Assembly: GCA_008632985.1 (NCBI GenBank)
Contig: QPGO01000100.1
Coordinates: forward strand, 238,388-302,387
Origin: Psammoneis japonica
Taxonomy: Eukaryota
Length of the DNA: 64,000 nt
Direction of reading: 5' to 3'
Position numbers and translations under genes: made by a program. This document shows, piece by piece, positions 25,084 to 64,000 of this stretch. The notes below the pieces were generated by a model, which had not been told where the DNA came from, did no database searches, and saw only the letters and a list, made by a program, of their open reading frames with translations. The first letter of the stretch is position 1, and every line of letters begins with the position of its first letter.

Positions 25084-25379
25084 GGTCAAGTTGTGCGTTG
25101 ACGTTGAATGATGGTTGAATGATGGTTGAATGAAATTTTTGAGGACAAATTTTTGAGAAGCAATGCGTTGCGATGGAGCAATGCATGCGCGATCTCTGTC
25201 CGAAGCGAGGGGGGGGAGAGACGTCCGGTTCAATTTTGAATTTTCAAACGGCTGTGGTGACCCAACGGTCAAATGACGGGTCATTTGCCTCGTCGCACTT
25301 TGTACAGCACACGAGGTTGCCATGCTCAAAGACAACTCCATTGGAACACCATGTTGTTGCTGTGCTGAAAAACTCTGAG

Positions 25380-28070
25380 AGAAATCAACAGGACAGAGAG
25401 CTTGGGTGTGCTGGTTGCGAAAACCTGCCCAAGTGCTGGCAACTGTGTGTGACAACATGAGTGCACAGAGAATGAAAGAAAATCTTGATGAGAAAGATCT
25501 GCTCAGCTTTCCAAAAGGTTTGGTTGTCACCACCCATGTGCTGCAGCATGCATGCACAATCCATGGACTCAGCAAACACAGTCGCACAGAGCACACAACC
25601 TTCCTTGACATGTGGTGTCTCTGTGTGGACCCCGCAGGTCACAAAAGGAACAGACAATGCAGCGGCGCACCAGAAACACATGCTGGCCAAAAGTTGATGC
25701 AGCAGCAGACTGGACAGGGACAGCCAGAAGCAACTCAAAGCCAGAGTGCTGCAGCAATGCAGCAGGGGCAGCATGTCCTCAACAAAAAAAGCAAGGAATG
25801 TCCAAAAAAGCACTGGCTGCCTTTCTTTGCTGTTTGTGGTTAACTGCAAATGTCAAGAATCAGCAAAGCTCATGGAACCCATGCAACATGCCCAACTCTT
25901 CAAATGAGAGAGCTGGCCTGTTGTTGTTGCTTCTTGAATCCAACACAGAGAATGACATTGTTGTCACATGGCAAGAAAAACTGTGGTGATGCAGAAAACA
26001 TCAAGGGGTGTGTGTGAGCTGCCAACATGGTGCAAAGTCAGCCCCAGTGCACACCGGCAACAATGAAAAAAGCAAGTGTGCACACCTCTCTTTGCACACA
26101 CTGCTGCTGGTCTGTCAACAGCAGCTGTTGGTCAACAATGTCACACAATGACATGCTGGCAGTGTTGTTGAACTCATGGGGTGCAGGTCAGCAGTGTGTG
26201 AATGCTGGGTTGTGAGTGGGACATTTCCGGGTTTGCCACAGATGGGAGGTTCATCACAGTNNNNNNNNNNNNNNNNNNNNNNNNNNNNNNNNNNNNNNNN
26301 NNNNNNNNNNNNNNNNNNNNNNNNNNNNNNNNNNNNNNNNNNNNNNNNNNNNNNNNNNNNNNNNNNNNNNNNNNNNNNNNNNNNNNNNNNNNNNNNNNNN
26401 NNNNNNNNNNNNNNNNNNNNNNNNNNNNNNNNNNNNNNNNNNNNNNNNNNNNNNNNNNNNNNNNNNNNNNNNCCCCCCCCCCTCCTTTTCTTGCACACAG
26501 CAATGGAGGGTGAGGGCCTTTTGAAGAGCTGGCTCTTCATTGTGAGTGCAAAGATGATGATGGCAGCAGGGAAGGAGAACAATGTCCAGCTGTGCTGTGC
26601 AATCTCAGAGGCAAGGTGTGGCAACTGCACCCAGCCAATGCAGTGCCACAAAGTTGCAGCAAGAGCAAACAGCCTCAGTGCCACAGAAATCTTTTGTGTG
26701 AGTCACAACAATGCTGGGGGTGCAGCCAGCTTCAGCCCTTTCATTTGCCCAGAGAAGGTCTCAATGCTGTGCCACCTGCCTGCGCAGCACTTCTAAACTT
26801 TGCTTTTTGCTTTGATTTTTTTTGGGTCTCCACCAGCAGCTGTGCAGGCTGCCATGAAAGCTGCCCAGTGTCCCCTTTTTGTCATCAGGAAAGAGAACAG
26901 TTCTTTCACTGAGTGCAAAAAATCAGCATCTGAAAAAGAGTGAAGCTTGGTTGTGTCCATGTGAAAGCATTGCCATTGTTTGAGAGCACTTTCTGTTGGA
27001 TTGTTCAAGCTGAAGCCTGCACTTTGTTTTTTGGATCTCACATTTTTGGCAACAACAACACTCGCTTGTTGTGTTGGCTTGAGCTGGGATTTCCTGCAGC
27101 TGTGCCACTTTTGTTGAATTTGCAAGCATGTGTTGCTCAAAAGTGCACTTGTTGAGAAAGCAACAACCCAACCAACATTGATTCAAGCATGTCAGTTGGA
27201 AGCAGTGGTGTGGTGACAAATGTTGAAAAGACCTCTGTTGTAGAATGAGAAATTTTTCTGCCTTGCAGCAAAGCAAAGTCATGGATGTGAAAATAAAAAA
27301 AAGCAAGGGGAAAAACAGGTACCTGACATCATTGGGAGGGCAGGCAGGATGGAAAGGTTTTGAGTGCCAAAGTCATTTGGGTGCAGCCCATTTTCCCACC
27401 ACACCATTGGTTTTTGTTTGACCCAGTTGAGGATTTGATTTTGAGGACTGGTGACTTGAAGAGGAGTTTGTGATGCTCAAAGATTCTGTTGGAGCACCAG
27501 ATTGCTTTGACTGGTCTCTGAGAGAACAAGTTGACAAGACAGAGTGATGGTGTGTGGCTGCTGACAAATGACAGAGACAAGCTGACAAAGACTTCCCAAG
27601 CGCTGGCAACTGTGTGTGACAAATGTGAGTGCAGAGAGAATGAGAAGATCTCACAAAGGAAATCTGCTCAGCTGCCCGAATGGTTTGACCATCATCCATG
27701 GGCAGCATGAACAACAAAGTCTGTGGGCTTTGCAGCTCACAAGATGGAAGCATCTGTGTTGTTGACCCTGCAGGTCACAGCAAAAAGGGGGCAGCACAAC
27801 AGCACATTGTGTGGACACACACATTTAAAGGCAAGGCAACAACAGACTGGACAACAATGTGTCATTGGTGGCAAGTGCTGTCCATTTGTGATGTGCAAGG
27901 GCATGGCAAATGAACAGCAAAAAACAGGTTTTTGGATGACTGCAAGTGCCAATCAGCACAGCTCATGGCAAGTCAAGCAACATGCCCGACTCTTCAAAAG
28001 AGAGTCATTGTCTTGCTGAAATCTGGCACAGAGAAGATCATTGTCACACAAGACAAAAACACACTGTGAA
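25380..28070 (+). repeat. Dispersed degenerate repeat A (copies about 25380-25990 and 27520-28070)
   Basis: Shared cccaag.gctggcaactgtgtgtgacaa...atctgctcagct...gaccc.gcaggtcaca...cagca.agctcatgg...caacatgccc.actcttcaaa.gagag. Confidence 0.8.
26261..26471. other. Assembly gap (N run)
   Basis: Run of n characters. Confidence 1.
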
Positions 28071-30150
28071 GAACAACATGAGGGGCATTTCAACCTCACA
28101 CATGTGAACCACACAATTGTCAAGTGTTTGCCTCATGTGACAACAAATGCGATGCACAAACAAATGATTCCAGGAAGCATGAGAGTGCTGCAAAAAATGA
28201 TCACACACTCTCTTCCCTCAAAACACCCACAAAATTGCATCCAGGTTGAGCCCAGGTTCTGGATGATCAGAACTTTTCCCTGCCAACCATCAGAGTCATT
28301 GCTCTGAATGCTTTTCTTGATGTGAGGTGCTGAGTGCAAAATCAAGCTGTGTTGGTGCCACAGTGGTTGTCACCTGCACAAGTGGATGTGCAGTGCTGTG
28401 CGAAATGCCTGACACACAGCAGAGCAGAGACCGGAAAACACACAAGAGGTGCACACCAAATGTTCATTGAAGGTGATGTGGGGGCAATGACAAATTGTGG
28501 CAAGGTTCCCTTGTGTCAATGCTGTGATGACAACCAACAATCTCAAGCAAGTTCTGCAATGCACAAACAAGTCCAAGCCCAAGCTGCATCAGATGACATG
28601 GCTGGTGCATTTCAAGGCAATGCACATGCCAGATGATCAGGCTGCCAATTCCAGATTGCACACATCCACTGGATGATCAAAACAACTTCTCCTTGTCAAA
28701 CAGGAGAGTTGGCACTCTCTGTGTGGGTGCGCTTTTGGGAATGCAACAAGTTGCTGCTGCTCAGTGCAAGCAAACAGCACTGGGTGCTACAAAATGGTTG
28801 TCTGCAAACCAATGACACAGATCAGCAGAAATGCCCAGCATGCAGCAGGAGGGCAGAGACTGAAAAACACAAATGAGGCACCCATCGTCATGTGCTCATT
28901 GAGGTTGCTGTAGGTTGTGGCACTGTGATGAGATTTTCTTGTGTGCACGCCACAATGATGGTCAACAATCTCAAGCAAGTTTTGCAACAAGCAAGTCCAA
29001 ACTGCATGAAATGCATGGCAGACCTCAGCAGGGGACACATGCACAGGCAGCACCATGCTGCATCAACCAACTGCAAGTGCGCTCTCAAATGAGCAAGTCC
29101 ACTCTGCACAAAAAATGTGGTGCAATTCAGCAGGAAATGCACACAGAGGTTGTGTGGTGCTGCATCAACCAACTGCAAAGAATGCACAAAACAAAAAAAA
29201 CAAAAACAAGAAGCTTGGGCAGTGACCAGCAGGTGCAGCACCAGCAAAAAATGTCTGGCATTTGTGTTTGCAGAAAACAAGTGTTGGTGCACACACCACA
29301 GATGTGGTGCCAGTGTGCACACCAGCAACAAAATGTCGCAAATGGAAGAGCAAATGGGCACAGCCCTCACACATGCTGCTGGTCACAATGGACAGTTGTC
29401 AGCTGACAGCACTGACATGGGGTTGTTGCACCCAGTCAATGATGCGGCAGGTCAGCACAAAAATGTTGGGTGGCTTGCAGAACCTTTTTTGCATCTGCAG
29501 CAGGTGAGAGGCTTGTTGATGATGGACCCCTCCTCTGATGGTGTCACAGGGTTAAAACAAAGCCTCTGAAGGGACACCACAGAGAGGTTGTTGAGGTGGT
29601 GTGGCAGAGTGGACCCAGAGAAAACCACAGTGTGTCTTTGTGAAAATTGTGTTGTGCCCCTGTTTTTGGAGAAAAATGCAACAAGGAGTGCTGCAGCCCA
29701 CCTTGACTGAGGAGTGGGTTTTGCCAAAAGGCACCTGGGCAGGTGAGAGATGTTGAGAGTTGCACATGGTGGCTGTCAGAATCAGAAAAGAGAGCAGTTT
29801 GAGCCAAGTGAAAAAAATGCATCTGAAAAAAAGTGGAGCTTCATGTTCATGTGAAAGCACCGCCATTGGCAGACAGCACTGTCTGTTGGGTCACTCAAGC
29901 TGAATCCCACACTTCATTTTTTGGATCTCACATTTTGGGTGACAACAACTCAGTTGCTGTGTTGACTTGAACTGAGTTTCCAGCAGCAGCTGCGCTGCTT
30001 TTGCAAGCACATGTGGCTCAAAAAAAGTGTGCATGACAACAACACCACCCAATCAACATTGACTCAAGTGTGTCAGTTGGAAGCAGTGGTGGTGGCAAAT
30101 GTTGACGAGACCTTTGTTGTCAATGAGAAATTTCTGACTTGCAGTGAAGT
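26920..30150 (+). repeat. Dispersed degenerate repeat B (copies about 26920-27265 and 29810-30145)
   Basis: Shared catgtgaaagca..gccattg...ttttttggatctcacatttt...caacattga.tcaag..tgtcagttggaagcagtggtg...aatgagaaattt. Confidence 0.85.
28460..29060 (+). repeat. Degenerate repeat C (copies about 28460-28635 and 28895-29050)
   Basis: Shared caacaatctcaagcaagtt.tgcaa....caagtccaa and flanking sequence. Confidence 0.7.
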
Positions 30151-31630
30151 GCTGAAGTGGCCATGAAAATGAGACACCACCCACCCATGCCATTGCTGCT
30201 CTGCTTTGTAATGTGAAGCTTCTTTGCACTTGTTTGCAGGCTTCTTGGTTGTGTTGCACTCTGCCTGCAAGAAATTTCTGCACTGCAACAAAGCAGAGTG
30301 GTGATTTCAAAACCGAGACACCACCAATGCCTTTGTTCCACTTGCCAAGGACATGGGGGCTGTCACTCTTGTCTGTGGGCTGCTTGGTTGCCACACACAT
30401 GCTTTGCCTCATGGCTGGAGAGTGAAAAGTTGCTCTTTTGTCCCTGCACCAAAGCTGACATGGACAACTTCAAGTGCAGACAAAAACATCAATTGTGTGG
30501 TCTCAGCTCCTGCTGTTTGGCCCAGCAACACTGGCTCTGTGTGTCATGGACCTCCGCTCCCCATCACATCAAAGATGTGACAGGAACAACCAATGCAGCA
30601 ATGTTTTGAGTCAAGGTGGGATTTGGCTGGGTGCTTCTTGTTGCACAGCACCAAATGTTTTTGCCATGACTGAATGATGAACAAGCCAGTGGGGGTCTCG
30701 CAGCTGTCAACAAAAATCACAGCAGAAAAAATGTGCCTGTCTTCAAATGTCAGCTTCAGAAAATCCAACCTGAAGGGTGCAAGGGCTTTGAAGAGCCATT
30801 TCTGGATTGGAGAGCTGCCTTGGAGGAGAATGCATCTTGTCTGGAAAAAAGGCCTGGGAAGTTGCCAACAAATGTTGGGAGAAGGAAAGTGCTGGGAAGT
30901 CTTGACAAGAGTCTCAGAGAAGCACCAAAAATGGAAAGATTGGCCCCGTTCAATGCTTGGAATGCAGTCACACATGTGGAAAACAACAGCTGCAGAGGTG
31001 CTCATTTTGTCTTGAGAACTCAAACAAAAAAGACAAAAAATGTGAGAATGTCTTGGATGCAGCATGTCTTGGATGCAGAATTGTGCAGAGGAGGTGTGCA
31101 GCCATTGGGGGTGAGAACACAAGAAGAGAAATCACCATGGCAGTGATGCTGCACCCAAATGAATTTGGAATGGAGTGTCACCTCTAACACCTGCACAACA
31201 TCTCCATCATGGCACAACTGCCAAGCACTCCAAAGTGACTGAGGAAGCTGCCTGGCACAATGCCCAACTCTTGCACAGGACAGCCATGTGGCTGCTTGCA
31301 CAAAAAAACAGCTGCAAAGTGCAGACATCACATGTTGTGAGAACCATCCACCCCGTTGTCACCAAGGCTTTTGTGCAGCCAGCATTTGGCAAATCAACAG
31401 TGAAGAGTGTCATGTCAAAAGCTCTGCAGCTGGGCAATCTGAAGCGGAGAGCAAGAGAAAGAGTGAGACCAGCCATGACACCAGACAAAAAATGCAAAAG
31501 TTTCAAGAACCCAATCATCATGTTGAGCAATGAAAGCCACCTCCTCATTGATGCCCATGCTGGCAACCATCATTCTTGCCTCCTTGCCATGATGGCCATT
31601 GCTGAATGTTTTAGAACAAGAGCAAGTTCA

Positions 31631-32586
31631 CAGCAGCAGCAGCAGCAGCAGCAGCAGCATCCACTGTCCGAAATCCACCATCCAGAATCTGCCATCCAGA
31701 ATCCGCCATCCACCATCCACCATCCGCCATCCAGCATCCACCATCCCGCATCCACCACCCACCATCCACCATCCATCATCCACCATCCACCATCCACCAT
31801 CCACCATCCACCATCTGCTGTCCACTGTCCACCATCCAGCATCCTCCATCCACCATCCATCATCCAATGTCCAGCATCCAGCATCCAGCATCCGCCATCC
31901 AGCATGCACCATCCAGCATCCACCATTTGCCATCCAGCATGCACCATCCACCATCCGCCATCTGCCATCCACCATTTGCCATCCAGCACCCAGCATCCAC
32001 CATCCTCCATCCAGCATCCACCATCCGCCATCCAGCATCCACCATCCACCATCCACCATCCATCATCCACCATCCGCCATCCATCATCCATCATCCATCA
32101 TCCACCATCCACCATCCAGCATCCACCATCCAGCATCCAGCACCCACCATCCGCCATCCGCCATCCAGCATCCAGCATCCACCATCCACCATCCACCATC
32201 CAGCATCCATCATTCACCATCCACCATCCACCATCCAGCATCCACCATCCAGCATCCAGCATCCATCATCCACCATCCGCCATCCAGCATCCACCATCCG
32301 CCATCCACCATCCTGCACCCACCATCCACCATCCCGCATCCACCATCCCACATCCACCATCCACCATCCAGCATCCACCATCCAGCATCCACCATCCGCC
32401 ATCCGCCATCCAGCATCCACCATCCAGCATCCACCATCCACCATCCGCCATCCACCATCCACCATCTGCCATGCACCATCAAACATCCACCATCCACTGT
32501 CCACCATCCAGCATCCACCACCCACCATCTGCTGTCCACTGTCCACCATCCAGCATCCAGCATCCACCACCCGCCATCCACCATCC
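31631..32586 (+). repeat. (CAG)9 followed by a roughly 0.9 kb 7-bp satellite (TCCACCA/TCCAGCA/TCCGCCA)n
   Basis: Directly visible heptamer tandem array; gives HHPPSSI-type translations. Confidence 0.95.
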
Positions 32587-33577
32587 AAAAAAAAAACGAA
32601 ATCTGTTTTACCACTGCCTCGCTGCTGCCCACACCAACACCTGCCATGGCAGATGCACATTCCCCAGCACCCACAAAGGGCAGCAGGGACAATTTGAACA
32701 CTGTGAACGTTGTCAGAAAGACAGTGCCATTAACACGTTGTCCGAAGGCAATGCCGTTAGTGCATCATCAGAAAGTGGCTGTTTGTTTTAAGTCAGAATG
32801 GCACCAACTGGATGCTTGTTGCACGGCAGCACAGTTGCTGTGCCTCAAAGAATGGACAAGCCCAGCCACACCACTTGGGAGACACCAAAACAAACACGGC
32901 AGAAAACTGAAACACATGTCTGTCTCCAAAGACAATTTGCTTGAAGAGAATGTGAATGAAATTCCTGGCATGAAACCATCCAGGAAGTCGCTCCAACACG
33001 GACCCCAACGATGAAAGGAAATGATGATCGCGGAAAACACCATCACACGTAGAATTGCACAGGAATTGTGCACTGAAGCTGCAGCATCGAAGTGCAAAAA
33101 GAGCAAACACTCAGACCTGGAAATGCTGGCCACTTGAAAGACTTATGAAGACCCACTTTGAAGTGCTGCCGTGCAGTGTTGATCATGACATTGAATTGCA
33201 CTGTAAAGAAAACTTGGAGGAAGAACGTTGGCAAGAAAACCAAAGGATGAAACTTGAAACGGTCTCGACTCAAAATTCTGGCCAAACGTGCAGAATTGCA
33301 CATGGAATTTGCACTGTAACAACTGACTTGGAAATTGCTGAATCACGTAGAAACCAATGCATAAAACACACTGACACATGGAAAGAAAATGCAAAGAGAT
33401 GCGACACCATGGCGGTGCCGCCCCCCCGAATGTAGACACAACAGAGTGTCCCCTCCGATGCCTTTTGGTTTCTCTGTCATTGGTGCAACTGCCTGACGTC
33501 CCAAAGTGCCCGAAGAGGTTGGCATGCCACCGCACTCTCACACGGGACAATCCTGCAGGTGCTTGAGCAGAATTGTG

Positions 33578-33932
33578 CCATCCACCATCCAGCATCCAGC
33601 ACCCACCATCCACTGTCCACCATCTGACTGCCATCCACCATCCAGCATCTGCCATCCAGCATCCACCATTCAGCATCCGCCATCTGCCATCAACCATCTG
33701 CCATCCACCATCCACCATCAACCATCCAGCATCTGGCACCCAGCATCCACTGTCCAGCATCTGCCCTCCAGCGCGCAGCATCCATCATCCAGCATCCACC
33801 ATCCAGCATCCCCAGCACTCACCACCCACCATCCTCCAACCACCTTCCATTGCCCACCACTCAACATCCAGCATCCAGCACCCAGCATCTGCCATCTGGC
33901 ATCTGCCATTCACCATCCAGCATCCACCATCC
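33578..33932 (+). repeat. Second, more degenerate array of the same 7-bp satellite
   Basis: catccac/catccag/catctgc units. Confidence 0.92.
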
Positions 33933-36824
33933 ATTGGGGCCATTTTTTCCAATGCTGTCAGCCCATCACTGCCTTCTCTCACCACAGACTGTGCCACCAT
34001 GCAGGGTGTGCTCAACAACAAAATTAACACATTGACCTCAACAACAAGTTGACAGAGTTGCCTTGTCAGCAGTGCCAGCATGAGAGTTCACAACAGCACA
34101 GGTTGTGTGAGGCATGCACCCAATGACTCCGTGAAAAAGAGGGTGACAAGAGTTGTGCTGCAGCATGATGGCAGAAAAAGTTCCGGGTCATTTGGGAGGA
34201 TGTCGTTTCTAATGTGAATGCCGGCTTTTCAAGATGTTGAAAGAATTTTTGTTTGGGGTTGCAGTTTGGAATTTGAGTGAAAAAGATCATTGGATGTGTG
34301 AAATGACACGACAAATGCACAAATGTTTGCAACAATTGTGCTGCGATTGTGCATTTGACGCTGGATGCAGTTGTTGATGATGGCACTTGTTGGTGTTTGG
34401 GCTCAGTTCATGCTGCAGTTTGTGGGTGATGTCAAGTCTTAGATCTCATTGACCAACTTGCAATGTTGACTGCTCATCTCAATTGTCACAGAACAGAAGA
34501 ACAACTGTCTCTCAGAAAAAGACAGAAAGAAAGGAAGAACATGAGTGCAATTGAGAGTTGCAGGATGCACCCACCCCCCTTGTTCCCATTCAATCCTGCT
34601 GCATCATTTTGTGTCTCCATCAAATGTTTTGGTGAAAATTGCACTGCATGCCTTCTGACCCTGTGGTGTGGCAAGGAGACAATGGGTTTGCATTCTGGAC
34701 TCTGACTCAGATTCACACATCAATGATCTCTTCCCACATGGACAGTTGCTTTCAGTTAAGATGTGCATGATGGACTGCAAAACTTGCTGTCAAAGACTGC
34801 TGGCTTGTGAAAAATTCTGACAATTCCAAGAGACCAAGAGACAGCTCCCCTGAACTAACTCATCATGTTGTTTCCTGGACAACGCCATGCTGCAGAAGAA
34901 ACAAAAGGGAAACAACTCAATTTGGACACGCAAAAATGTGAAAAAAATGAACCTCAAGTCCCAACAAGTTGGTGGCACCATTTTGTGCTTCATGGTGCAA
35001 AGCAACCCTTGTGAGATTGCACTTGTGAAGATTTGAAGAATGTTGAAAAAAGAGCGAACTTGGTTTGCACCATGAGCATGTGAATGACATTGATGCAGAT
35101 CCCAGCTGATGATTTCAAGCTGACTTGACACATTGTTTCAAAACCAAGAGCTTGGCTGGACACTTTGAAGGAAACGGGCATGTCATTTGGGACTTGCACA
35201 TTGTTGAAAAAGGGTGTTTTAATGCTGCTGGATTGTTGTCACACATTGGGTCCCAACAAGGAAAGAATCCCACAGTGTGTGCAGCCTGGTGTTGGAGAAT
35301 GCAAATGCAACAGGAGCATGCAATGTCTGTGACTTTGCTGGAACCATCAAAGGCAAGAGAGTCAACATCTTCAACATTGTTGTCTTGAACCCAGTTGTGC
35401 AGGCACCATGCACAGCACCAGAGGGCTTGCTGTAAAACCACCATCTCATGCTGTCAAGCAAGCTGTCAGTGGTGCCATCATCCAAGCACTGGCTCATGTT
35501 GGTGGCCTTGTTGGAGAACACACAAAAGGAGGACATTCAGAGAAATGCAGTGCAGAATGCATTGGTGTCAAAGCAATTGAACCATGGGGACACTGCGGCA
35601 GATTGCTGGGAACCTTTGTGCTTGGTGGAACAATTGGCAACAGTTTTGTGGGAGGTGGTGTCACTGAATGTGGAGATTGAGTCAGTGGCCTTGTTGGACT
35701 CTTGTCTGCTGACAGCCTTGTTTCAAGCAGCTGTGCATGCGGCGGCATCAAAGTGAATGGTGACAATCACAAAAAAGCAACCCTCCAGTTGGCGGTGGTC
35801 TTGTTGGGTGGAACACAGGTTCAATCCAGAACAGCTTTGCACTGGAAAAATTTCCAGTGGGTCCAGGGCATGTCTTGGGATGCTCATGGGTTAGATCTGA
35901 CAAAAGGTCTTGTCTCACAACAACTGCTGCAGGACAGAGCCTCCAATTGGCACCAAGGTGCAGGCAAAAGTCATTGACGATCCAAGCTGCTTTTGAATTC
36001 AGGGCAATGAGCCAATGTTGAGCTGGAACATTGACACTTGGACTTTTGGAGTGAGCTTTTGCCCATCGCTCAAGTGTCGGAACACACATGGCCACCAGCA
36101 ATGAGCCCAAGCATTGTTTCCACTGGACGGTCAACAATGACAAGTGTGCCGTTGACAGGGCCACTGTCGTTCATCATTGTCTTGTTTGCCATGGCCTTCC
36201 CAAGTTGCCGACCAAGGCAACCGCATGCATCACTGCCAATTCCAATGACAGCATGTGAAGACTGCACTGCTGTCATTGTTGCGGGAACTTTGAAGAAGAT
36301 CACACAGCATCTGGGTTGCATCAAGCTTGAACTGCACAAAATTATCCAAATTGAAAAATCTAGAAAAACATTGTTCGAAAGGTCACGCGGGCGAAAAAGC
36401 TCTTGACGAAGCAACGGCACTTCACTCCCGCAAAGTCCCTGGCGCATACAATCTGTTGCAAGGTCTAAGAAATCAAGTCGGCGAAAAGGTTCGCTGAGGA
36501 CAAATGACTCTAGAAGACCAAAAGAGAATTGTGGCTGTCATCAATGAGGCACAGCATCTCATTGATCTATTGAATGCATTCTAGGGTTAACGCGAAAGAG
36601 CCTTTACGTTCTTCGATGCACCATTCACGGTGGCTTGTTTCCAGTAGAAAAAGAAAGGCGCTGAAAAATGTCAAGAAATGATGCTTTTCAAAAGTAGGGC
36701 CGTAGCTAGTACAAACTAAAAATGAGCGCTCTACTAGAAGTGTAATTCATTGTTAAATTTATCACATATCCATTAAAACTTCAAAACGCTAAAACTACTG
36801 TTGTACAGACAGATTCAAGTCAGT

Positions 36825-39585: not shown

Positions 39586-41051
39586 ATGAGCAGTTCAAGC
39601 AAGAAGGCATCCAGGACAGAGGAGCGCACGACGGGCTTTCGGGTTATATCCGAATCGTATCCCAGCGGCAGGGGATGCTGCTATGGCCAAGAGCTTGACG
39701 AGGACTACATCCGCGCTTGTACAAACACCACTGTTGTTGGAGAGTACGACACCATGAGAGAGGCTAAGCGAGCAGCTATAGCCAAGCGCAACGCCACCTG
39801 CGAGTTCGATGACTGTGAGTAGGTATCTGCGACCTTGCCATAATGACGCCATGTTTCACTTCTTCTCAACGCATTCACCTCTCTTGGTCGTCATACTCGT
39901 ACACAAACTCACGCATAGGGGCGGAAGAGTTTTATGGCAGGAAAGCACCCCCGTACTACAGTGACGACGGCGATAACTATGACGACGACGAAACGGTCGC
40001 AATCTACATTGTCGACATTTCGAAAGAACTCGCCGAGAAGGAGAAGGCAATGAAGAAGGCACGCGCTTCAGCCCCGCCCAAGAAGACCAAGTCGACGACC
40101 AAGCCGAAAGCGTCAACCAAGTCAAAGACGAAGGCGCCTTCCAAGGCAATCGTTAAGCCGGCAGACCGGAAATTCGGCCATTCAGTCACGGATACGTCAG
40201 TCATTGACACGAACATTTTTCTCCGTAACCCTTGCCGTCTCCGCGGTGGAGAGTCGCATCATCCTGGCGTTTACGGAAATGGTGAAACGGGCAAGAACTC
40301 GTTAGTATACCTGATGCAACGTATCTCGGATCGGAACTACGCCATGCGTAGCTTCTGCCTTGAGGGCACCGGGGCAGAGTACACGAGTTTTAAGAGGCGC
40401 AACGTCATTGATCGTTGTGTGGCGTGGATGCCAAACACGAACCTGAATAACCACTCCAAGAACGAAACGATCTTGGACGCTTGCCACACGGATCTCGTCC
40501 AGTACAACACGGGAAGGACCCTCTTGACAGCTGAAAGCCTTGTCGAAGGAGCGAACCCCGACATCGAATGCATGTTCATCCACGGCTACTGTGGTGGTGA
40601 CAGTTCTCCCAAGGACATTGTCAGGGCTATTGAAGCATGTCCGAATCTTCGGTGCATTTCGCTAACCGAGACCGTTCTTTCCGATGACGTCCTGACTGCA
40701 CTTGCATCATGTGCAGAACTTCGCGGAATCCTTCTTTCCATGCCAGACAACGAGTCTCCCAAAGCCACTGATGCGGGGCTTGCGGCAATCTTTCGTTCAT
40801 GCCCCAAACTCTCCTGGGTCTTTATTGATTGCGACATCTTCGATACGGAAAGCTGGAGGGCGTTTGCCGACGGCGCCTGCCCTGACCTAGAGGTTCTCTG
40901 GGTGGACAGCACCATGTCTGAAAATGGACGATACGATGTGGCTCGAGGTGACCACAACATTATCCGCGCGGTGCTGGCGGAGCGCAAGTCCGATCTGAAG
41001 CTGCTCATGATTAACCCAGATACCAAGCTCAACTCTCGTCACCACATCTGA
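39586..41051 (+). CDS. Hypothetical protein with C-terminal RNI-like/LRR region, paralog 1; intron about 39815-39918
   Basis: ACPNLRCISL, SCAELRGILL, SCPKLSWVFI and ACPDLEVLWV repeats; splice gact|gtgagt..catag|gg gives DDWAEEFY. Confidence 0.75.
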
Positions 41052-41628: not shown

Positions 41629-43155
41629 ATGAGCTTGTCAAGGAAGAAAAAAAGCAAGAAGGAGTCGAAGCGCACGTCGGGGTATCGCGTCGTGAGTGAA
41701 TCGTATCCCAGCGGTCGAGGTTTCTACTTTGGTGAGGGTCTTGACGATGACTTCGTCCGGGCTTGTACCCGACCGCGATTGTGGGGGAGTTTGATACTCT
41801 GAGCGAGGCCGAACAAGCGGCCAAATATATGCGTGACGCCACATGCCAATTTGAAGACTGTGAGTAACAATCGCATACAACAAACTAAAGCAACGTCGAA
41901 GTTATCTATCAGATTCATCTCACCTATTTCTTTCTCTTTGCACTTCTTCACCAAAGGCGCAGTAGAGTATCGCGACAACAGGCCGATCAGGTACCACTTC
42001 GTTAGTCCCGATGAAGATGAGGCAATTGACATTTGGATTGTGAATATTGCTGAGGAACACGCCAACAAGGAAAACGTCGACAAGGAAAACGCTCCGCGGA
42101 AAGGGCACCCCACCGCTCAGCCCAAGAGGAGCCAGAAGGCAGGTGCCAAGACTCAGGAACGCAAATTCGGTCCTGTAAGGGTAAAATGCAATCCCGACAC
42201 AGAAATCTTTCTTCGATACCCATGCCGCCTAAGTGGAGGAGAATCGCATCCTCCCGAGGCTTATGGCTGCGGCGGGAGAGGCAAGGATTCGCATTCCTAC
42301 ATGGTTCAGCGGATGTCTGACCGCAATTATGCCATGCGCAGCCTTTGCCTTGAGGGCGCTGGTGCCAAGTATACAACCTTCAAGAGGAACGGCCACACAA
42401 CCCATGCCACGGCATGGTTACCCTCCAGCAATCTCAGTAATCACGCAGAAGATGAAACCATCTTGGACGCGTGTCACTTGGACCTTGTCAATGTCACGAA
42501 CGGAAAAAGCCTCCTCACGGCAGAGACTCTGCTCGATGCTGCAAGCCCCGAGGTCGAATGCATGTTTTTGAACGTGTACCAAGGTGGATCGAAGAGCCCA
42601 AAGGAGATTGCGACGGCCATTGCGGCATGCCCCAACCTCAAGTGCTTCTCCTCTGTGGAATCTGTCATTTCCAACGACGTTCTCAAAGCTCTTGAAGGCT
42701 GTACGGATCTTCGTGGTCTCCTCATCGAGATGCCTGTAAACAAGTCGCCTCGCGCCACTGACAAGGCTCTTGCAAGAGTTTTCAAAGCTTGCTCCAAACT
42801 CTCTTGGATCTATGTTGATTTCAATATTTTTGCTTCGGAGAGTTGGATGGCACTTGCCATGGGTGCTTGCCCAAACTTGGAGGTGCTTTGGGTAAACAGC
42901 ACCAAATCGAAAAACGGCCGTGTTGGTGTGGCGAGGGGCGATGTTGTCATTATTCGCACCTTCCTCGAACTCCGCCAATCCAGTCTCAAGCTCTGCATGA
43001 TCAACCCCGACGAGACGCTCAAATCACGCCACGTGCGCATGGGGGCAAAACAGATGGACCGGCTAGAAGGAACCAAGATCGAGGCTCCAAGGTATGAAGA
43101 TAGTTTAGATTACGAGGAAGAGCAATATGTGGATGTTGATTGCACCACCTCGTAA
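41629..43155 (+). CDS. Tandem paralog 2 of the RNI-like/LRR protein; intron about 41859-41956, frameshift near 41773
   Basis: Shares SESYPSGRG, PCRL.GGESH, QR.SDRNYAMRS.CLEG.GA.YT.FKR and ETILDACH.DLV, and the intron position, with paralog 1. Confidence 0.75.
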
Positions 43156-49844: not shown

Positions 49845-50921
49845 GGATTTCTTTTTTGAATTGTGTGATTTGTATTCGTATTTTAGACAAAATGGTTGGT
49901 TATACATCCTTTGGTTTTGATTGTTTTGTCGTTGTTCAAGTTTGCGGCAAGTGGTTATTATTACTTTATTTTTGTACTGCAAGCTCGCATGTCTTGTTCC
50001 TACAATAGCGGCTGTTATCGATTCTCATTTCCAAGAGAAGTGGAAAAGTCCAAATCATTCTTGCGTGTGTTGAAATAGAGCAGAACTAGTCTCTATAGAG
50101 AGAATCAGAGATAATAGAGAATCTCTATAGTTAGTTAGTAGCTTGATCTCGAGAGAGTAGTTAGTTCGTTCGTCGGTTGACTCGTCATTTCACGATTTCA
50201 ACACGATGTTGCCACATTGATGTAGTGGCGTCAATCTAAATCCATATACACCACGAGATTTGGCCAAGGCAGCTATACATTGTGAACTCTAGGTTGGCGT
50301 TGATTTTTAAACTCGGTTTTGCTTTGATATCATCTCTAGCTCAATGTTTTAGAGTTTTTCCCTATAGTTTTGTACAACTTGGACGAGACCTGCATGAAAT
50401 GGGGCGTCGTGTGTCATGATGGGACCCATCATCTTGATCTATCTAGAGTGTACTGTACCACGAAGCGAAAGAAGCGCGGCGGTTACGATGGGCAATTAAA
50501 AAAATGTCAATAATTGAAGTAAATAAACACGTGGAATGTGGTCTCTGACCTTATTGCGTGGCTGAAGAAAACACGAGCTAAATCGCTGTCACTTCCAAAT
50601 CTCCCTCCGACCTCATCACAACATCAGCTGAAAACAAACACCAAAACCCGCCGTCGTTCTACAGTCCCGGTTCATTTCAGGAGAATCATACCCCATATCC
50701 AGCCCAACATTGAATGTTGTAAAAGGTGACAACACCATCTTCCCCTCTCTCGGGCGGCACGATCGATGCGGGGGAGTTGTGTTTTTGGTGCGTTTCACGC
50801 AGAAATCTACGTGTCTGGTGCTTGACGTTGATGCTTCCTCTCGATGGATGCCTCAGTTTCTGCTCTCGATTCTCTCACAATCTTTTCTTTGACCAGGAAG
50901 TAACACAGTCAAGACATCGCC

Positions 50922-52370
50922 ATGATTGCCTTCATGAAGAACCTTGTTGTCATCTCCCTTGGCATTGCTGCCGGTGCCGCGAGTGCTGGTCCCTTTGCCC
51001 GCCCGCTTTCGGCCGTCTTTGACTCGACGGTGCAAGGTGTGTTGATTGCTGTGAAAGCAAGTCAAGACATGCTTCACATTGCTTTGGCCATGACCACAAT
51101 TTTTGCGCCGATCGAAAGCCATGATGACTCCTTCATCCGCCTCCCAAAACATCCTCCGCAACACCACACCTGCGAGCATGCCCGTTGAAGCTCAAATCAG
51201 GTCGAGCATCTATTGTGTGTCTTTTGACCACAAGGACTGCGACTCCACCCTTCTTCACAACATCATTCGAAACTGCACACCTGTGGACGACGTGCCAGTT
51301 GAAGCTCTAAAAGCCTCGAGCTCTGTCTGCCAGTCTTCCTTCGACTTGTCCTTGGAGCACGAAATCGATTTGTCTGGCCGTTTCCAAGAAATCTTTCAAG
51401 AGCACGTGCCCACCGCAATGATGCCCATCCTGACATTTTCCGACACTTGCAAGATTTTGTCAAACTGTGCCATTGAGACCACGTTGAAGTTGCACACGAC
51501 ACTCCATGAATTCTCTTTGAAGACCACCAAGACTGTTCGTGAAACCGCTTCGAGCTTGCACAAGATCATCCATGACTCCTTGAAGACCTTTGTCACAAAG
51601 ATGCAAATTCAGGCTTGCATTTGGAAAGAACACATGATGACGCAGCTTCAGACACCAAGATTGTCATTGGAATGTTGGTGGACGACAATTTTCAAGAATC
51701 AACAAATGGCTTTGTCACGCTTGTTCAAACTCAGGCTTGTGCTCTGCATGAAAAATACGAGACGATGCTGTTTCAGACACCAAAATTGTTCTGCATCCAG
51801 AACATTGGTGGACAAGAGTTCAAAACTTGTGGAAGAGCTTTTAGTCTGGGTGCGAGTGTGGGCGAGCGAGATGTCAAGAGTTGGGGACATTCCTTGTGTC
51901 CCGATCCGAATCATGCGGTGAATTGGGTTGGTTGTCAGACACAGGGTTTGGAGTTCCAAGTCGCCAGTTGTCAGATGATGCAGCAGGTGTCCTGTGCAGA
52001 CACAAATGAAAATTTATCCATCTCTGTCATAATTCACATGCTGGGTTGGTGTCCATTGCTCCATCAAAAAGGTTGTGCCGCAAACCGTGTCTCCCAAGAA
52101 CGACTTCCGCGCGCGACTGCCTGATGATGATCCAAGCTGCCTTTGCCAGTGCAGCTTCAGACAGACCCACAGCACTTGCGTGGCACAGAACCTGTCGGCA
52201 TCACACTCGCACAAGAGGAAACCGCAGAGAGGGAAGGCTCTGGCGCATGCCAAGATGACTTTGATTGTTGCAAAGAACACGAACAACATGCACCGTGCCA
52301 GTCGGCAAGACTCACAAGTGTTTTCGGCTTGCCCAGACGCATGTAACGCACAGTTTGAGACCTTCTAATG
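50922..52370 (+). pseudogene. Degenerate gene of unknown family with a signal-peptide-like start
   Basis: MIAFMKNLVVISLGIAAGAASA followed by overlapping broken frames that are nearly Tyr-free. Confidence 0.4.
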
Positions 52371-52499
52371 TCGCAGACGCATGCTGTGAATGTGAACTCT
52401 GTTGATGCAGTGGATTGAGCTGTGGTCATCGTGCCAAATTTGGTCACCATGAATTTCTTGCGGGGACTGCGACAGGCGTTTTCAACGGGGGTTCAGCAA

Positions 52500-53100
52500 T
52501 TGAGAAGCTGTGTCGTGTGTGTCAGCCTCAAGCGCTTGCACTCTTTGGATCCAAAAATGTTGCAGCAGCTCACAGACTTTAAGCCTGAGAGCATCATGCC
52601 CAAATCTCTGGCCAGCTGATCAACTGGAGGATCAGATTTGAGGCCCTCAGTGTCAGCCTGCTGGGACACAACTGGCTCTTTGCACTGATGAATCTTGGTC
52701 CTTGCCGAAGAGAGATTGCTGTTGCTTGAGAGTTGATCTGCTGAATCGATTTCATGCGCACAGTGAATGCGAAGCCATTGAGCCACAACGTGAGGTCTGG
52801 CTGAGACACTTCTTTGCCCGTGGGCCTTGCGATGGAGCAGCTGATGCAATTGCCGAGAGCAGGTCGCTTTGCAAGAGTGTCGGTTTGGCAAAGGCCATTG
52901 CAGACATGTGGAATCGGATTTGGTCCAATGCAACCCCATGGAGTGGCAAGAGTTACGTCAAGGAGAACATCACGACTCTCCTCGGCATAAAAGTCACCCA
53001 CCGTGACTGCAAATGAGCCATCATCCCTCTTGACGGCACTTTCATGATGGACTTTGGTGATTTTGTCACCAAGATTTGCCACCTCTTGGTTTTGGTCACG
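52500..53100 (-). pseudogene. C-terminal fragment of a VWA-domain protein
   Basis: VTVGDFYAEESRDVLLDVTL resembles the GDLYAEE.RD.L motif that follows VWA domains; frameshifted; VWA core not seen. Confidence 0.6.
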
Positions 53101-53599
53101 TGACGGGCCTGTAGAAAACCCAACGAGTTTGATGACTTTCTTGTCACGTGCTTTGGAGCACTCTCAAGTCGCTTCTTCTTGCTGATTGACAGAGAAGGGA
53201 TGACCACGTGTGTTCGACTGTCGCGACTGAGCAGGAAAGTGTGAACATGGCGAGGTCACGTGCATTCTGCAGCAAAAGTGAACTTGATGAGTTGGCAATG
53301 GGAACCTCTTCATTGTTGCTTCACTTCTTGGTGCGCCAACTGTCAAGTGTGCATGAAATGTCGTGTGCTCGCACTCAAAAGAACGCGACCATGACGTCAA
53401 GCTCATTGCTCTTACAAAACTGCTTTCCACCCGGCCTCGGTCTAAAATCAATGTGCCATCAGTGCCCACATGGACATCATTCCAGAAAAGCACGGGGTGT
53501 CAGTCTGGCTGGGCAAAAGAGTCCAAAGGACATCACAAACCCACTGTCCATCAAGTTTTTGTCTGGCTTCGGAGTCCAGTGGCTAGACTCTTGTTCCAG

Positions 53600-54350
53600 T
53601 TCTAAAGCTTTCAATTCATGCAACGGCGGCACATTCTCCATCACTCCCGGGTTCCAGTTTCTCCCAGATCACCCCCATCATTGGCTTTTTAGGTGGTGGC
53701 TCAATTTGCATCTGCTGAGTTGGCGTTGCAATGTAGTCAGAGAGGGTGTCGCAAGGGCTTGGACAAAGTTCCTGATCGGAAACAACCTGGCAGTCATGAA
53801 CCAAAGATGCAACTGGCATGCCCAAGTCGATGACTCCAATCTGGTGGAGCACAGCCCATTCCAGGTCAAAGCATCCATGTCCCTTGCCAAAACGCAGCCC
53901 ATCTCGGTTGACGACTGAGGCTCCTGCAACTGCCAAATCTAATTTGCTGTGCCTCTGACGAATGTCCGACAACGAAACGCATTGCCGACATCTTTGCAGT
54001 TGTCCAGCAAAACAGTTGCACTGGCGGTGCCGGCAGTCTCTCCATCTGATGGCCTGATTTTCAAAATTACCTTCTGCATCCCACCTGTTGGCATGACAAC
54101 CACCTTGCCGTCTTGTCCTTCTGCGCATCCCAGCAGCTTCTCGAGACAGTTGTCAGGTGTGATGAAGATGGTTTTTGCTTCTGAACATGCTTTCATTTGT
54201 CACAATCTTTTCGTTGCAAGTTCGCTGCCTTCAAAGTCTGGAATGAAATGGTTGAAGTCACAGCCATGACACTTGTGAGGTTTCGCCACTCGCTCCATTC
54301 TCGTCACACCCACTTGGCGTTGCAGCCTTGCGCCAAGTTGCCACGTCATT
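53600..54350 (-). pseudogene. 5-formyltetrahydrofolate cyclo-ligase-family pseudogene
   Basis: DFNHFIPDFEGS, AKTIFITPDNCLE, DGK.VVMPT, G.RFGKGHG(C)FDLEW and VHDCQVV; in-frame TGA at 54200-54202 plus frameshifts. Confidence 0.85.
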
Positions 54351-54937
54351 TTGTCCCACTGACAGCAGCTTGCAGTGGACGGGAGGTGCAGGCGCGAGGG
54401 ACAGCTGGTTGTTCTTCACTGGCATTTGTCATGGATTCTCTGCTTTTGCCCATTGTGGAGGCACCCATGGATGTTCTGTTCCGCAGAAATGTGAAAGGCA
54501 GAATCTCTGGCCTGGGGTGGCAGTCGCGTGGATTCCTTCTCCATTGACCGTCATCAAAAGCAACACCACAGAAACATTCCTGCCAAGGCAGTTGCACATT
54601 TAGGAAATGAAACGTTCTTCCCAACACCGGCAGAAGTGAAGGATTCTTTTCGAACCTCGACGGTCAATGGCGGGTCCAATCACAAAACACAAAACATCTC
54701 GCAGTGGAGTCTCTGCTCTCTGCTCGCTGCAACAAAGAGTGAGTCCATTTTCATCAGGAGCTGGATGAAGCCCATGGTACAAACTTAGAGACAACGGGTC
54801 TAACGGCACCAGCGCCATTGTCGAGAATCAATCATTAGATTTTGATGATGCTCTCTGCAGATGTTGCAGAACGTAGGTTCCACGTAGAAGTAATGCTATA
54901 AATCTCTCCCCAGCGTTTGAATTAACAATTTCTTACC

Positions 54938-55068
54938 CGGTCTGACATCCGTCTGACATCCGTCTGACACCCGTCTGACATTTTTTTTTGTCAGACTACT
55001 CACAAAATACACGAAAAAAATTCGTTTTGAAACGCCCGTGAAACGCCAGTGAAACGCTCGTGAAACAT
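54938..55068 (+). repeat. Two short 11-bp tandem arrays: (CCGTCTGACAY)x4 with one inverted copy, and (GTGAAACGCYM)x4
   Basis: gtctgacatccgtctgacatccgtctgacacccgtctgaca-t9-tgtcagac, then tgaaacgcccgtgaaacgccagtgaaacgctcgtgaaac. Confidence 0.9.
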
Positions 55069-55355
55069 TTGTGTGAGAATTCTGTATTCGCTGAGGATTG
55101 TTTTTGCGTAGGATTTCTACGGAGAGCTACGACGTACTGTACCTATCTCCCCACGTTATTTTGCACCTGCACCCGACTGCGCTGTTTTTCTGAAAAGTTC
55201 ATTCATCGAACCAACGACAACAAGCACAGTTGTAGTTTCCCTAACCACTAAAATTCACAAATCATTGCATATCTGTACTCTTCAGCAACAGCAAGAAAAA
55301 CAAGACAGAGCGAGGTGTGTTGCGAGAGTCAAAAGAGCGACAATAGAGGCGATTG

Positions 55356-61181: not shown

Positions 61182-61462
61182 ATAGCCCGAAGCCCAAAAG
61201 GGATGCATTTGCAGCGGGGAACGAAGCGTTCACGGGGTTAAGATCTAAAAGTAGGGGGACTTTATGACACACACACTAAGATATTTTATGTCTAACAAGA
61301 GCGACTGCTCCTCCCGATTCATGCTGTTGAAAACGTTCGGGTTGTCCTGAAAAAAATCTTGGATGGCTCCTGCATGAGGATTTTGGTAGTAACCCCTCAC
61401 GCTTCTAGTCGAGCCACCTTTGTTCAGAAACTACTCAGTCGCCTCAAGGAACCCAGATCTCC

Positions 61463-62147
61463 TTAATTATTCGTCGTTACGATGGTTCTGATAGAGTCTT
61501 GTAAGAATTTCATTTTGTTGGTGTCTTGGGGAGTAGTCACACGAATGAACAGGTCAGAGCAGCAGCAGTCGTCAAGGTCCGCGAACTTCTTGACGAAGTA
61601 ACGGACTCTTTGTTCATAGTCCGTTGGAATTTCTGCAAAGGCCTTGGATGGTTCCTGGTCTTGAATGCCGCTCGACAGAATCTGCTTTGCAAACAGGTCC
61701 TTTTGATTGAGCACGAGGATTTTGGAAATATCGTTTGCTTCTTTTGAATCACAAAGCCTCTCCCAACTCTCCAATGCGCGCTTCATTCGATTCTTCCTTG
61801 CGTGCTTAGTGACACTTTTTGCTTTATCTGGACCATACTCGTCGTCATTTGGCAAGTCTGCAACGAACAAGGCCGCATCCCTGTATTTGAGATACTTGGT
61901 CCAGTCACCATTTGGTTGACTTACACACAAACGAGACACGTCGAGAAACTCATGCTCAAATCCATCAATCAGGTACCTATATTTGGTAATGAAAGATGAA
62001 ATTGATTCAACTCTCTCGTACCTTCCATATCGCTCTCGTATCGCTCAAAGAGCGCCACGAGAGCTTTAGGATCTCCCTCACAAGAATCCTGACTTTGTCC
62101 AGGTTCGCTCGCTCCAAGACATGCTCTTCCGGCGCAGGTGCAATCAT
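61463..62147 (-). pseudogene. Truncated G-alpha-like gene, copy 1 (frameshifted, small deletions)
   Basis: ILVLNQKDLFA.QI and YFVKKF...FIRVT...DTNKMKFLQDSIRTII-like C-terminus; colinear with 63118-63942. Confidence 0.7.
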
Positions 62148-63117
62148 GGTTACTGTACCAACAAAATGCTTTCTCTAACTATGTCATTTTCATAAAATGT
62201 CGCATTACGTAGGAAATGAAGTTCACGTTTGCTACACTGTATGCAACATTTTTTCTTCTTGCTGCCACGTCGGGTTGGGGGTTCGCGCTTCGATCCTTGC
62301 TTCGAGATGGTTGATTCTTGTTTTTGTTTGTCACCCGCGATCTTTCAGTCATGGGTCGTGCGATAGAGGTGGAATCAGGAATCTTTCGATTTACACCTGT
62401 TTCAACAAAAATGAAGGAGCGATAATAAGGAGCAACACCGCAACACCATGGCGGCGCCATCTGCCGTAGGAGATTGATAGCCGGGCTTCTTTCTGCTGTT
62501 ACTAACGCAGTCAGACATGAAGGTGATTTGAAGGTCTGAAAAGGCCATCAAACCGCTCCTAAAAGACACGAGATAGACGCATGAGGAGAAAGGCGCGTCC
62601 GTGCCGGGCGTTTACCTACGTTCAAGGAGAAACTTAGAGACACACTACACACCCCATGTAAACAAAGCGTTTGATGGATACCTAAGGAGGCATTTTATGT
62701 TGAAAGGATAGCAAGATACAGCGAGATTCACGAATTGCTCATCACATCAATCTGATCGCTTTGGTCTTGTTCTCCCTGTGAGCGTCCCACAAAGAGAGAT
62801 CATGAATTAACTTCATAAGTTGTAAGTATAGTCTTTGTTCTCGTAAGTTGTACTGAAAAGCACCATCCCACATGACGAAGACAAAAACCTTTGCACAGGG
62901 AGTTGGATACGTGGTACAAGTCTTTGGACTTGGTGGATTACGATGAAAAGAACATACTTTCTCTCTGATGGGTGGGATCACATAGTTTGTTGATCAATCG
63001 GTGCACCAGAACAGCAAAGTCAGTCTCTCTCACATGATTTCTTCCATCCTGTTGTCTTTTCAGGAAACTTATGCTTTGACTCTGGTCTCGAAATGTACAG
63101 TATTTTGTTGGTATAAA

Positions 63118-63942
63118 CTACCGTGGAAAAGAACGCGTGACGAAAGCTCGATTCATCATTCGACGTTCAGCCTTTCCAAGCCAGTTCTTGACTCTGCGCG
63201 CAACAGACGCAGTGTCTGCTGAGCCATCCAGCAACCCAGATCTTTGTAAATTTCCAATCATGATGATGGATCCGATACATTCTAGTATGAAGTCCGAGTT
63301 GGCGCTATCGTGCGGAGAAGTCACACGAATGTACAAGTTGGAACGGTGACAGTCTTCACATTCTTTGAACTTTTGGATGAAGTACCGGACTCCCTGTTCA
63401 AAGTGTTTTGGTTTCCCTGCAAAGTCCCTGAATGGTCCCTGATCTTGAATGTCACTCGACAGAATCTTTTCCGCAAACGTATCCTTTTGATTCAGTATGA
63501 GGATTTTGGAAATCCCCTTTGCTTCTGGTGAATTGCACAGTCTCGCCCAACTCTCCAAGGTGCGAGCCATTCGATTCTTCCTTGCCGGTTTACTATCACT
63601 GTACTCTTTGCTGGAATCGCAGTATTCATCATAGTCGGCTAAGTCTGCAATGAACAAGACCGCGTCCCTGTTTGATAGATACTTGGTCCAGTCACCGTTC
63701 GATTGACTTGCAAACAAACGAGACACGTCGAGAAACTCAAGCTCAACTCCATCAATTAGGTACAAGTACCTATATTTGGTAATGGAATCTGAACTTGATT
63801 CAACTCTCTCGAACCGTCCATATCGTTGTCGTATCCCTTCAAAGAGTGCTGCTTGTGCTTTCGGATCTCCCATTCCGATTACGAGTATTCTGACTTTGTC
63901 CTGGTCCGGTTGCTCCAAGACATGCTCTTCCGGTGCAATCAT
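63118..63942 (-). CDS. Atypical truncated heterotrimeric G-protein alpha-like protein, copy 2
   Basis: AVLFIADLADYDE..., NRM..TLESW, ILILNQKDTFAEKI, FAGKPKHFEQGVRYFIQKFKEC and IIMIGNLQRSGLL match the G-alpha C-terminal half; P-loop and DVGGQ are degenerate. Confidence 0.8.
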   Translation of the reverse strand: MIAPEEHVLEQPDQDKVRILVIGMGDPKAQAALFEGIRQRYGRFERVESSSDSITKYRYLYLIDGVELEFLDVSRLFASQSNGDWTKYLSNRDAVLFIADLADYDEYCDSSKEYSDSKPARKNRMARTLESWARLCNSPEAKGISKILILNQKDTFAEKILSSDIQDQGPFRDFAGKPKHFEQGVRYFIQKFKECEDCHRSNLYIRVTSPHDSANSDFILECIGSIIMIGNLQRSGLLDGSADTASVARRVKNWLGKAERRMMNRAFVTRSFPR

Positions 63943-64000
63943 GGTTGCCAATTGTGCTTTCTCTATTTGCGTTTAATTCTATAAAGTGTCGCGGTAATGA

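Follow-up and report, generated by a model that had tools for sequence, protein, structure and literature searches.

Only one study, a 2026 preprint on the chlorarachniophyte Bigelowiella natans (Mettrop et al., bioRxiv 10.64898/2026.01.13.699255), has described hypermutation of chromosomal DNA directed at the TpA dinucleotide. Mutation-accumulation lines acquired 231 de novo mutations within two integrated viral regions; 230 of them were A>G or T>C and, according to the authors, fall on TpA, and the viral regions mutate about 1000-fold faster. The B. natans genome contains 124 TpA-poor clusters rich in CpA+TpG, and an ADAT2-like adenine deaminase has been proposed as the agent, which is a hypothesis in that work; in its main text, CpG appears nowhere (10.64898/2026.01.13.699255). 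Here we analyze a stretch of 64 kb of contig QPGO01000100.1 (hereafter, the window) in which a zone of about 4 kb, block 3, is nearly devoid of TpA (TA) but retains much of its CpG (CG). We consider it probable that block 3 was hit in place by a TpA-specific A:T to G:C process that acted on both strands and was of the same kind as the B. natans hypermutation.

The likeness to B. natans extends to several features: TA is converted to TG or CA on both strands, the change is found in discrete regions, and these bear a long-term signature that combines low TpA with high CpA+TpG. The B. natans hypermutation also reaches non-viral sequences and unannotated genes, as here. All four 1-kb windows of block 3, with observed-to-expected ratios (o/e) for TA of 0.06-0.13, pass the TpA threshold used for B. 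natans (Rho <=0.43), and their mean TG/CA o/e of 1.48-1.63 can be set beside the B. natans Rho(CpA+TpG) threshold of 1.52, a measure that may be computed differently. Erasure is far more complete here, with o/e values of 0.04-0.10 versus a Rho of 0.45 in the region of B. natans derived from nucleocytoplasmic large DNA viruses (NCLDV). Unlike the B. natans regions, ours contain no recognisable viral gene, and CpG decay is present in them. The window also has 12 open reading frames (ORFs) of at least 300 amino acids in 44 kb, versus 8 introns per gene in B. natans (PMC13746701), and TA represents 3.9% of its dinucleotides versus 6.0% in B. natans (10.64898/2026.01.13.699255). These figures, the gene content (DUF285 and ShK-prolyl-hydroxylase), and a homologue from the diatom Grammatophora (see below) suggest that the window belongs to a different, diatom-like organism. 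The phenomenon is of a kind described once, in another lineage; what is new here is the near-complete erasure, the overlay of CpG loss, and the existence of rims where only TA is missing.

Other known processes resemble this pattern in part. Repeat-induced point mutation (RIP), known in Neurospora and other fungi, also produces localised, near-saturating transitions in repeated or silenced DNA, with spillover and dead genes. However, RIP makes TpA from CpA, so that TA rises, whereas in block 3 TA o/e is 0.10 and TG and CA o/e are 1.56 each. Fungal RIP can therefore be rejected: TA falls and CA/TG rise, which is the reverse chemistry. The decay of 5-methylcytosine (5mC) in methylated transposons, which is to be expected for methylated diatom repeats, is similar in that CG has become TG/CA in blocks 1 and 2, and partly in block 3, and in that versions of the repeated part of block 3 differ mostly at CpG, but CpG deamination cannot remove TA. 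In Escherichia coli, very-short-patch repair, which is T:G-directed and linked to the scarcity of CTAG, turns TA-containing words into CA/TG-containing ones; this is a slow, genome-wide bias and not a bounded block with 85-95% erasure. RID-related DNMT4 enzymes, the function of which is unknown, occur in diatoms (PMC9998398) and could be relevant to the CpG part only. In two diatom genome papers, the passages retrieved by term search contain nothing on TpA loss (PMC5124317, PMC7466962). In our literature searches, TpA erasure was described neither for diatoms nor for any organism besides B. natans, and the papers mentioning both 5-hydroxymethyluracil and diatoms were all on dinoflagellates.

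Near-complete loss of TpA in a sharply bounded region

We used as background the rest of the window outside three TA-poor blocks, and set the block borders by change-points in TA density. The window is eukaryotic and gene-dense, and its background has TA o/e of 0.57, CG o/e of 1.01, and a GC content of 47.8%. Block 3 (50721-54778) has a CG o/e of 0.64 and 50.3% GC. It contains 23 TA, versus 159.4 expected at the background rate (Poisson P 1e-41), and 165 CG, versus 233.7 expected (Poisson P 1e-6). The slightly larger interval 50560-54780, which the original prediction had delimited, contains 29 TA (o/e 0.11) and 172 CG (o/e 0.65). When the analysis is carried out on 300-bp windows, TA o/e is below 0.15 in none of the 435 background windows, and its mean over the 38 windows of block 3 is 0.095 (maximum 0.22). 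The mean CG o/e in such windows is 0.64 in block 3 (range 0.36-0.98), 0.17-0.21 in blocks 1 and 2, and 1.02 in the background (5th percentile 0.67). Inside block 3, CG o/e is 0.75 in the repeat part (50721-52031) and 0.60 in the single-copy part.

The borders are abrupt. The TA rate falls from 54.9 to 4.7 per kb at 50721 and recovers from 5.5 to 36.8 per kb at 54778, such that TA erasure is confined to a discrete region with normal flanks. The few TA that remain in block 3 are found chiefly in the TTA/TAA context: relative to the background, the fraction left is 0.06 for ATA/TAT, 0.11 for GTA/TAC, 0.21 for CTA/TAG, and 0.26 for TTA/TAA.

The original prediction was based on the stretch 51181-51480, for which it had counted about 2 TA and 14 CG; we obtained the same numbers (o/e of 0.10 and 0.80, respectively). 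Its description of CpG as being at gene-like levels is accurate for those 300 bp but not for block 3 overall, which is intermediate. It had also described blocks 1 and 2 as having lost both dinucleotides, in agreement with their TA o/e (0.04-0.06) and CG o/e (0.19), and the computed ratios preserve the distinction that it made, the CG o/e of block 3 being above that of blocks 1 and 2.

To assess the sequence itself, we compared the window with contigs from a public run (X1), which may be the assembly's own sample and whose library type is not on record. X1 contigs cover block 3 at the word depth of its flanks, and one of them, 2029 bases long, spans 52729-54756 with four other letters and one gap. 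The TA-poor sequence is not a basecalling artefact, because the X1 contigs carry the same sequence at flank depth. In single-copy block 3, the letters that differ between window and X1 at 53023, 54014, and 54213 are all CpG<->CpA, and one C is missing at 53983; the CpG<->CpA differences represent either CpG decay between strains or alleles, or small assembly errors at methylated sites.

Type and direction of the changes

The summed share of the four pyrimidine-purine (Y-R) steps is conserved: they represent 24.3% of background dinucleotides, compared with 24.1% for block 3, 25.2% for block 2, and 23.6% for block 1. Among them, solely TA and CG fall and solely TG and CA rise, in amounts that balance, and the o/e of AT, AA, and TT is hardly altered in block 3. 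Because the gains in TG/CA balance the losses in TA/CG and the other steps hardly change, the loss has occurred via transitions within Y-R steps. It shows no strand bias, with 402 TG versus 386 CA in random interleaving in block 3 (runs test z=0.87).

Three observations support the direction TA to TG/CA. The first one comes from a dead fragment of a vWA/Vwaint-type gene in block 3 (see below), for which run X1 contains a second version of 52729-53080, about 91% alike, with 32 other letters. Among 11 listed differences, four are TA in the second version and three TG plus one CA in the window, and one is CG there versus CA in the window; the second version also contains one more G, following 52793, with which the reading frame would be preserved. 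The second concerns nine columns rich in tyrosine among the homologues of this fragment and of a second dead gene, related to 5-formyltetrahydrofolate (5-FTHF) cyclo-ligases. In the window, these columns encode Cys (TGY) in four cases, His (CAC) in one, Gln, Phe, and Gly in one each, and Tyr in one. Overall, Cys content is 5.7% in the window pieces versus 1.5% in the homologues, and Tyr content 0.4% versus 2.0%. The third is found in five diverged repeat pairs of blocks 1 and 2 (892 aligned nt), where 21 of 55 adjacent double mismatches oppose CA to TG, compared with 8 of 146 in two paralogue pairs in normal DNA (1566 nt; Fisher P 5e-8). Such discordance would be expected if, after duplication, each copy had independently resolved an ancestral TA or CG on one strand or the other. 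Taken together, these data indicate transitions at TpA giving TpG and CpA.

Uncoupling of TpA loss from CpG loss

The original prediction had claimed that TpA does not disappear as a side effect of CpG depletion, and the retained fractions agree with it. Block 3 retains 63-71% of its CG and 14-18% of its TA (that is, it has lost ~29-37% and ~82-86%, respectively), and blocks 1 and 2 retain 19-23% of CG and 7-12% of TA. The uncoupling can also be seen at two edges of these blocks, where TA is gone and CG is at or above background. At the right edge of block 1 (2253-2426, 174 bp) there is 1 TA versus 6.8 expected and 12 CG versus 10.0; at the left edge of block 2 (25063-25312, 250 bp) there is 1 TA versus 9.8 expected and 17 CG versus 14.4. 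Block 3 and these two TA-free, CG-full edges thus support that TA loss is separable from CG loss.

The suggestion, also made originally, that the blocks may form an age series is possible, but weaker methylation explains the retained CG of block 3 equally well. Block 3 looks younger than blocks 1 and 2 because its genes are still recognisable, whereas blocks 1 and 2 have no credible domain. Nevertheless, the rims weaken the age-series reading: since the CG-full rims presumably share the age of their blocks, CpG retention can reflect absence of methylation rather than youth. The data do not separate age from methylation level.

A possible mechanism

We propose that block 3, flanked by two normal genes, consists of silenced DNA, some of it repeated and some captured, namely a dispersed repeat, a vWA 3' fragment, and a degraded 5-FTHF-cyclo-ligase-like gene. 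A TpA-directed A:T to G:C change would have acted on it in place and on both strands, turning TA into TG or CA, and a second, separable process would have led to CpG loss in the same blocks, with less of it in block 3. This would account for the erasure, the transitions, their direction, the strand symmetry, and the sharp borders documented above. The CpG process would most likely be deamination of methylated CpG. The TpA change is probably enzymatic, because ~85-95% of TA has been erased, yet the vWA segment and its second version have remained ~91% alike. The candidate enzyme might be an adenine deaminase acting on DNA or a thymine-modifying enzyme. 5-formyluracil mispairs, and thymine hydroxylases exist in other protists, which offers a basis for the oxidation of thymine to a base that pairs with G. 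Block 3 may have been targeted as foreign or repeated DNA; among its contents are the dispersed repeat, the captured gene fragment, and the gene whose best named homologue is bacterial.

More tentatively, and with a confidence that falls a little short of even, we suggest that TpA-directed hypermutation operates outside chlorarachniophytes, in a diatom-like stramenopile. There it would act in place on double-stranded DNA, with borders sharp to ~0.1-0.3 kb and 85-95% erasure, and would be aimed at CpG-methylated silenced blocks, reaching slightly further than CpG loss and being faster than it or independent of it. If this is true, adenine- or thymine-directed genome editing would be a widespread algal defence parallel to fungal RIP, and the TA-free, CG-full rims and the intermediate blocks would provide a natural time series separating the two processes. 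If the source is diatom-like, the process would be older or more widespread than one lineage, and near-complete TA erasure would be possible alongside CpG methylation decay without depending on it. The question of the enzyme would then be testable in organisms with genetic tools, with TA o/e versus CG o/e as a simple genome-wide read-out.

Several points weigh against this interpretation. The main one against a simple in-place story comes from the dispersed repeat. The 21 listed differences that distinguish its versions comprise 13 CG<->TG/CA, four TA<->TG/CA (two each way), and four of other types. The four TA differences provide a hint of ongoing TpA change, but most differences concern CpG and only two show TA elsewhere versus TG/CA here. 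Since most versions share the TA-free state, TA loss in this family would largely predate its spread, or the family may be natively TA-poor. The support for the direction comes from 11 of the 32 differences of one contig, nine Tyr columns, and composition. At the right edge of block 2 (35978-36342), where TA is absent (0 versus 14.3 expected) and CG is intermediate (9 versus 21.0), the maximum-likelihood change-points of TA and CG are just 33 bp apart, which makes one of the three old-block edges where the two processes nearly coincide. Pfam searches of the three blocks detected no domains typical of viruses or transposons. Duplication by itself does not trigger TA erasure, because two tandem paralogue pairs in normal DNA are untouched, both retaining normal TA and CG. 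With regard to a RIP-style duplication trigger, block 3 is repeated in part, and a second version exists for the vWA fragment; the cyclo-ligase-like part has the depth of single-copy DNA. Another caveat is that X1 possibly derives from the very sample that was assembled. Finally, the occurrence of the process in a second lineage is something that we infer.

Alternative explanations

One alternative is that the composition is native, block 3 being an inserted mobile or viral element whose lineage evolved almost without TA. The repeat versions in X1 are indeed mostly TA-free, with only two of the 21 listed differences restoring TA, and the bacterial affinity of the best named homologue of the cyclo-ligase-like gene indicates that part of the block may be foreign. 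However, the second vWA version has TA at four of the 11 listed differing sites, Tyr columns have become Cys or His, and old duplicates in blocks 1 and 2 have resolved the same sites differently, one copy having CA where its partner has TG. In addition, the TA-free zone of blocks 1 and 2 extends 174-250 bp into CG-normal flank beside host genes, and a scan of viral contigs with the cyclo-ligase alignment detected no relative (64 pattern matches, 0 confirmed). We therefore regard a native origin of the composition as unlikely.

Similarly unlikely, in our opinion, is a single process linked to methylation or heterochromatin (for example, 5mC decay coupled to biased mismatch repair, or gene conversion that favours GC) that removes both CG and TA, with block 3 at an earlier stage. 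It would fit the loss of both dinucleotides to the same products in all three blocks, the near coincidence of TA and CG change-points at the right edge of block 2, and the three single-copy differences between window and X1, which, being all CpG<->CpA, agree with ongoing CpG decay. By contrast, two edges are TA-erased with CG at or above background, and the ratio of TA loss to CG loss is strongly different between block 3 and blocks 1 and 2. GC-biased conversion would deplete AT, AA, and TT as well, which is not the case here, and the mutation in B. natans is TpA-only (10.64898/2026.01.13.699255).

A third possibility is that RNA hyper-edited from A to I by an ADAR-like enzyme was reverse-transcribed and inserted. 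ADAR usually prefers U before the edited A (10.64898/2026.01.13.699255), and both dead genes are on one strand and lack obvious introns. Yet editing of one strand yields TG or CA, not both. Because TG and CA are equal in number and randomly interleaved in block 3, one-strand RNA editing is ruled out, in line with the four TA sites of the second vWA version, which are three TG and one CA in the window. TA loss also affects non-genic flank at blocks 1 and 2. We have accordingly rejected ADAR-type editing with retro-copying, and consider any scenario of this type very improbable. Least credible of all is an assembly or basecalling artefact at modified bases: although the three CpG-related letters and the single-base indels that distinguish window and X1 could be local errors (or another strain), the X1 contigs at flank depth are likewise TA-poor over 52729-54756, with 4 other letters in 2029, and the conflicting TG and CA variants per site that a strand-specific miscall would give were not seen.

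Contents and surroundings of block 3

The neighbours of block 3 are a branched-chain ketoacid dehydrogenase kinase-like gene, with its end near 49841, and a gene whose start is near 55.3 kb. Block 3 is not bounded by terminal repeats, either direct or inverted, and self-comparison of the window, both plain and in a purine/pyrimidine code able to see through transitions, revealed no other copy of it. Its left part belongs to a dispersed repeat (50577-52031) with no recognisable protein family, the first ~145 bp of which have normal TA. The summed word depth in run X1, which is not a copy number, is 324-1036 in this repeat versus 55-65 in single-copy parts. The repeat is represented in X1 by many short contigs with 90-99% likeness, and 50577 is the point where the single-copy contig stops. 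It has short internal direct repeats with spacings of 114 and 125 bp and no Pfam match, and none of 682 candidates of comparable length was a homologue of its ORF 51094-51918 at E<=0.001.

The vWA/Vwaint-type gene (52436-53085, minus strand) is a dead 3' fragment corresponding to the last ~210 codons. It aligns only to residues ~275-487 of homologues of ~490-550 amino acids (E 7.7e-25 to 5.5e-13), most of which have VWA Pfam domains. In tblastn searches it splits into a piece in frame -2 and another in frame -1, the frame changing near 52792.

The 5-formyltetrahydrofolate cyclo-ligase family gene (53585-54382, minus strand) is degraded: a TGA lies in frame at 54200-54202, and the frame shifts somewhere between 53984 and 54026; its tblastn pieces are in frames -1 and -3. 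As run X1 has an extra C after 53983, the frame change may be an assembly error. This gene is located in a part at single-copy depth in X1. Its match to Pfam PF01812 (E 2e-4) is under the cut-off, but phmmer retrieved 699 relatives at E<=0.001 (best 3e-45), and tblastn E-values to the two protein families of block 3 are about 1e-20 to 1e-40. The closest named homologue comes from Anaerolineae/Chloroflexota metagenome-assembled genomes, with 52% identity over ~119 amino acids, and a bacterial origin of this pseudogene is possible. Among the homologues found, the sole one named as eukaryotic is from the diatom Grammatophora.

On the right, block 3 is bounded by another repeat (54756-55195) that has normal TA density and is not TA-depleted. 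It has a summed word depth of 169-221 and interrupts the single-copy contigs, which stop at 54756 and resume at 55195. It contains an 11-bp tandem GTCTGACATCC at 54940-54981. The GTCTGACA motif was not enriched elsewhere, with 21 matches versus 18.6 expected. A 19-nt direct repeat is shared by 50263-50281, outside block 3, and 54582-54600, inside it. The two copies differ by CTATAC versus TTGCAC, equivalent to TA>TG plus TA>CA at adjacent steps; this may be due to chance and is too short to interpret.

Blocks 1 and 2 and other features of the window

Block 1 (1-2427) is cut by the window start and has TA o/e of 0.06 and CG o/e of 0.19; block 2 (25063-36343) has TA o/e of 0.04 and CG o/e of 0.19. 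Pfam searches of all six read-through frames found no credible domain in either of them; the only matches were a low-complexity one in a satellite of heptamers and, in block 1, some to ankyrin that stayed under the threshold. The satellite, with unit ATCCACC, is located inside block 2 at 31673-32587 (~131 copies) and 33578-33933 (~50 copies). In several frames it reads as long His/Pro/Ser or Trp/Gly/Asp repeats, with a spurious DUF6799 match, and its heptamer is, we assume, not derivable from a known telomere unit via TA>TG/CA. An assembly gap of 212 N occupies 26261-26472 of block 2.

DNA without TA lacks TAA and TAG stops and therefore gives rise to long false or extended ORFs, an annotation hazard that can both create spurious long ORFs and lengthen real ones. 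The stop-to-stop ORF of a ShK/2OG prolyl-hydroxylase (23455-25638, minus strand) extends ~550 bp into block 2, and its first ~180 codons are probably non-coding.

Other genes in the window include DUF285 and ShK-prolyl-hydroxylase genes. The tandem paralogues in normal DNA are two G-alpha genes (61444-62151 and 63227-63946, 76% alike) and an unnamed pair (40206-41042 and 42196-43032, 64% alike). At 17121-18613 (plus strand), two adjacent ORFs have strong matches to DUF285 (BspA-like repeat) and 150-bp periodic internal repeats, in DNA of normal composition.

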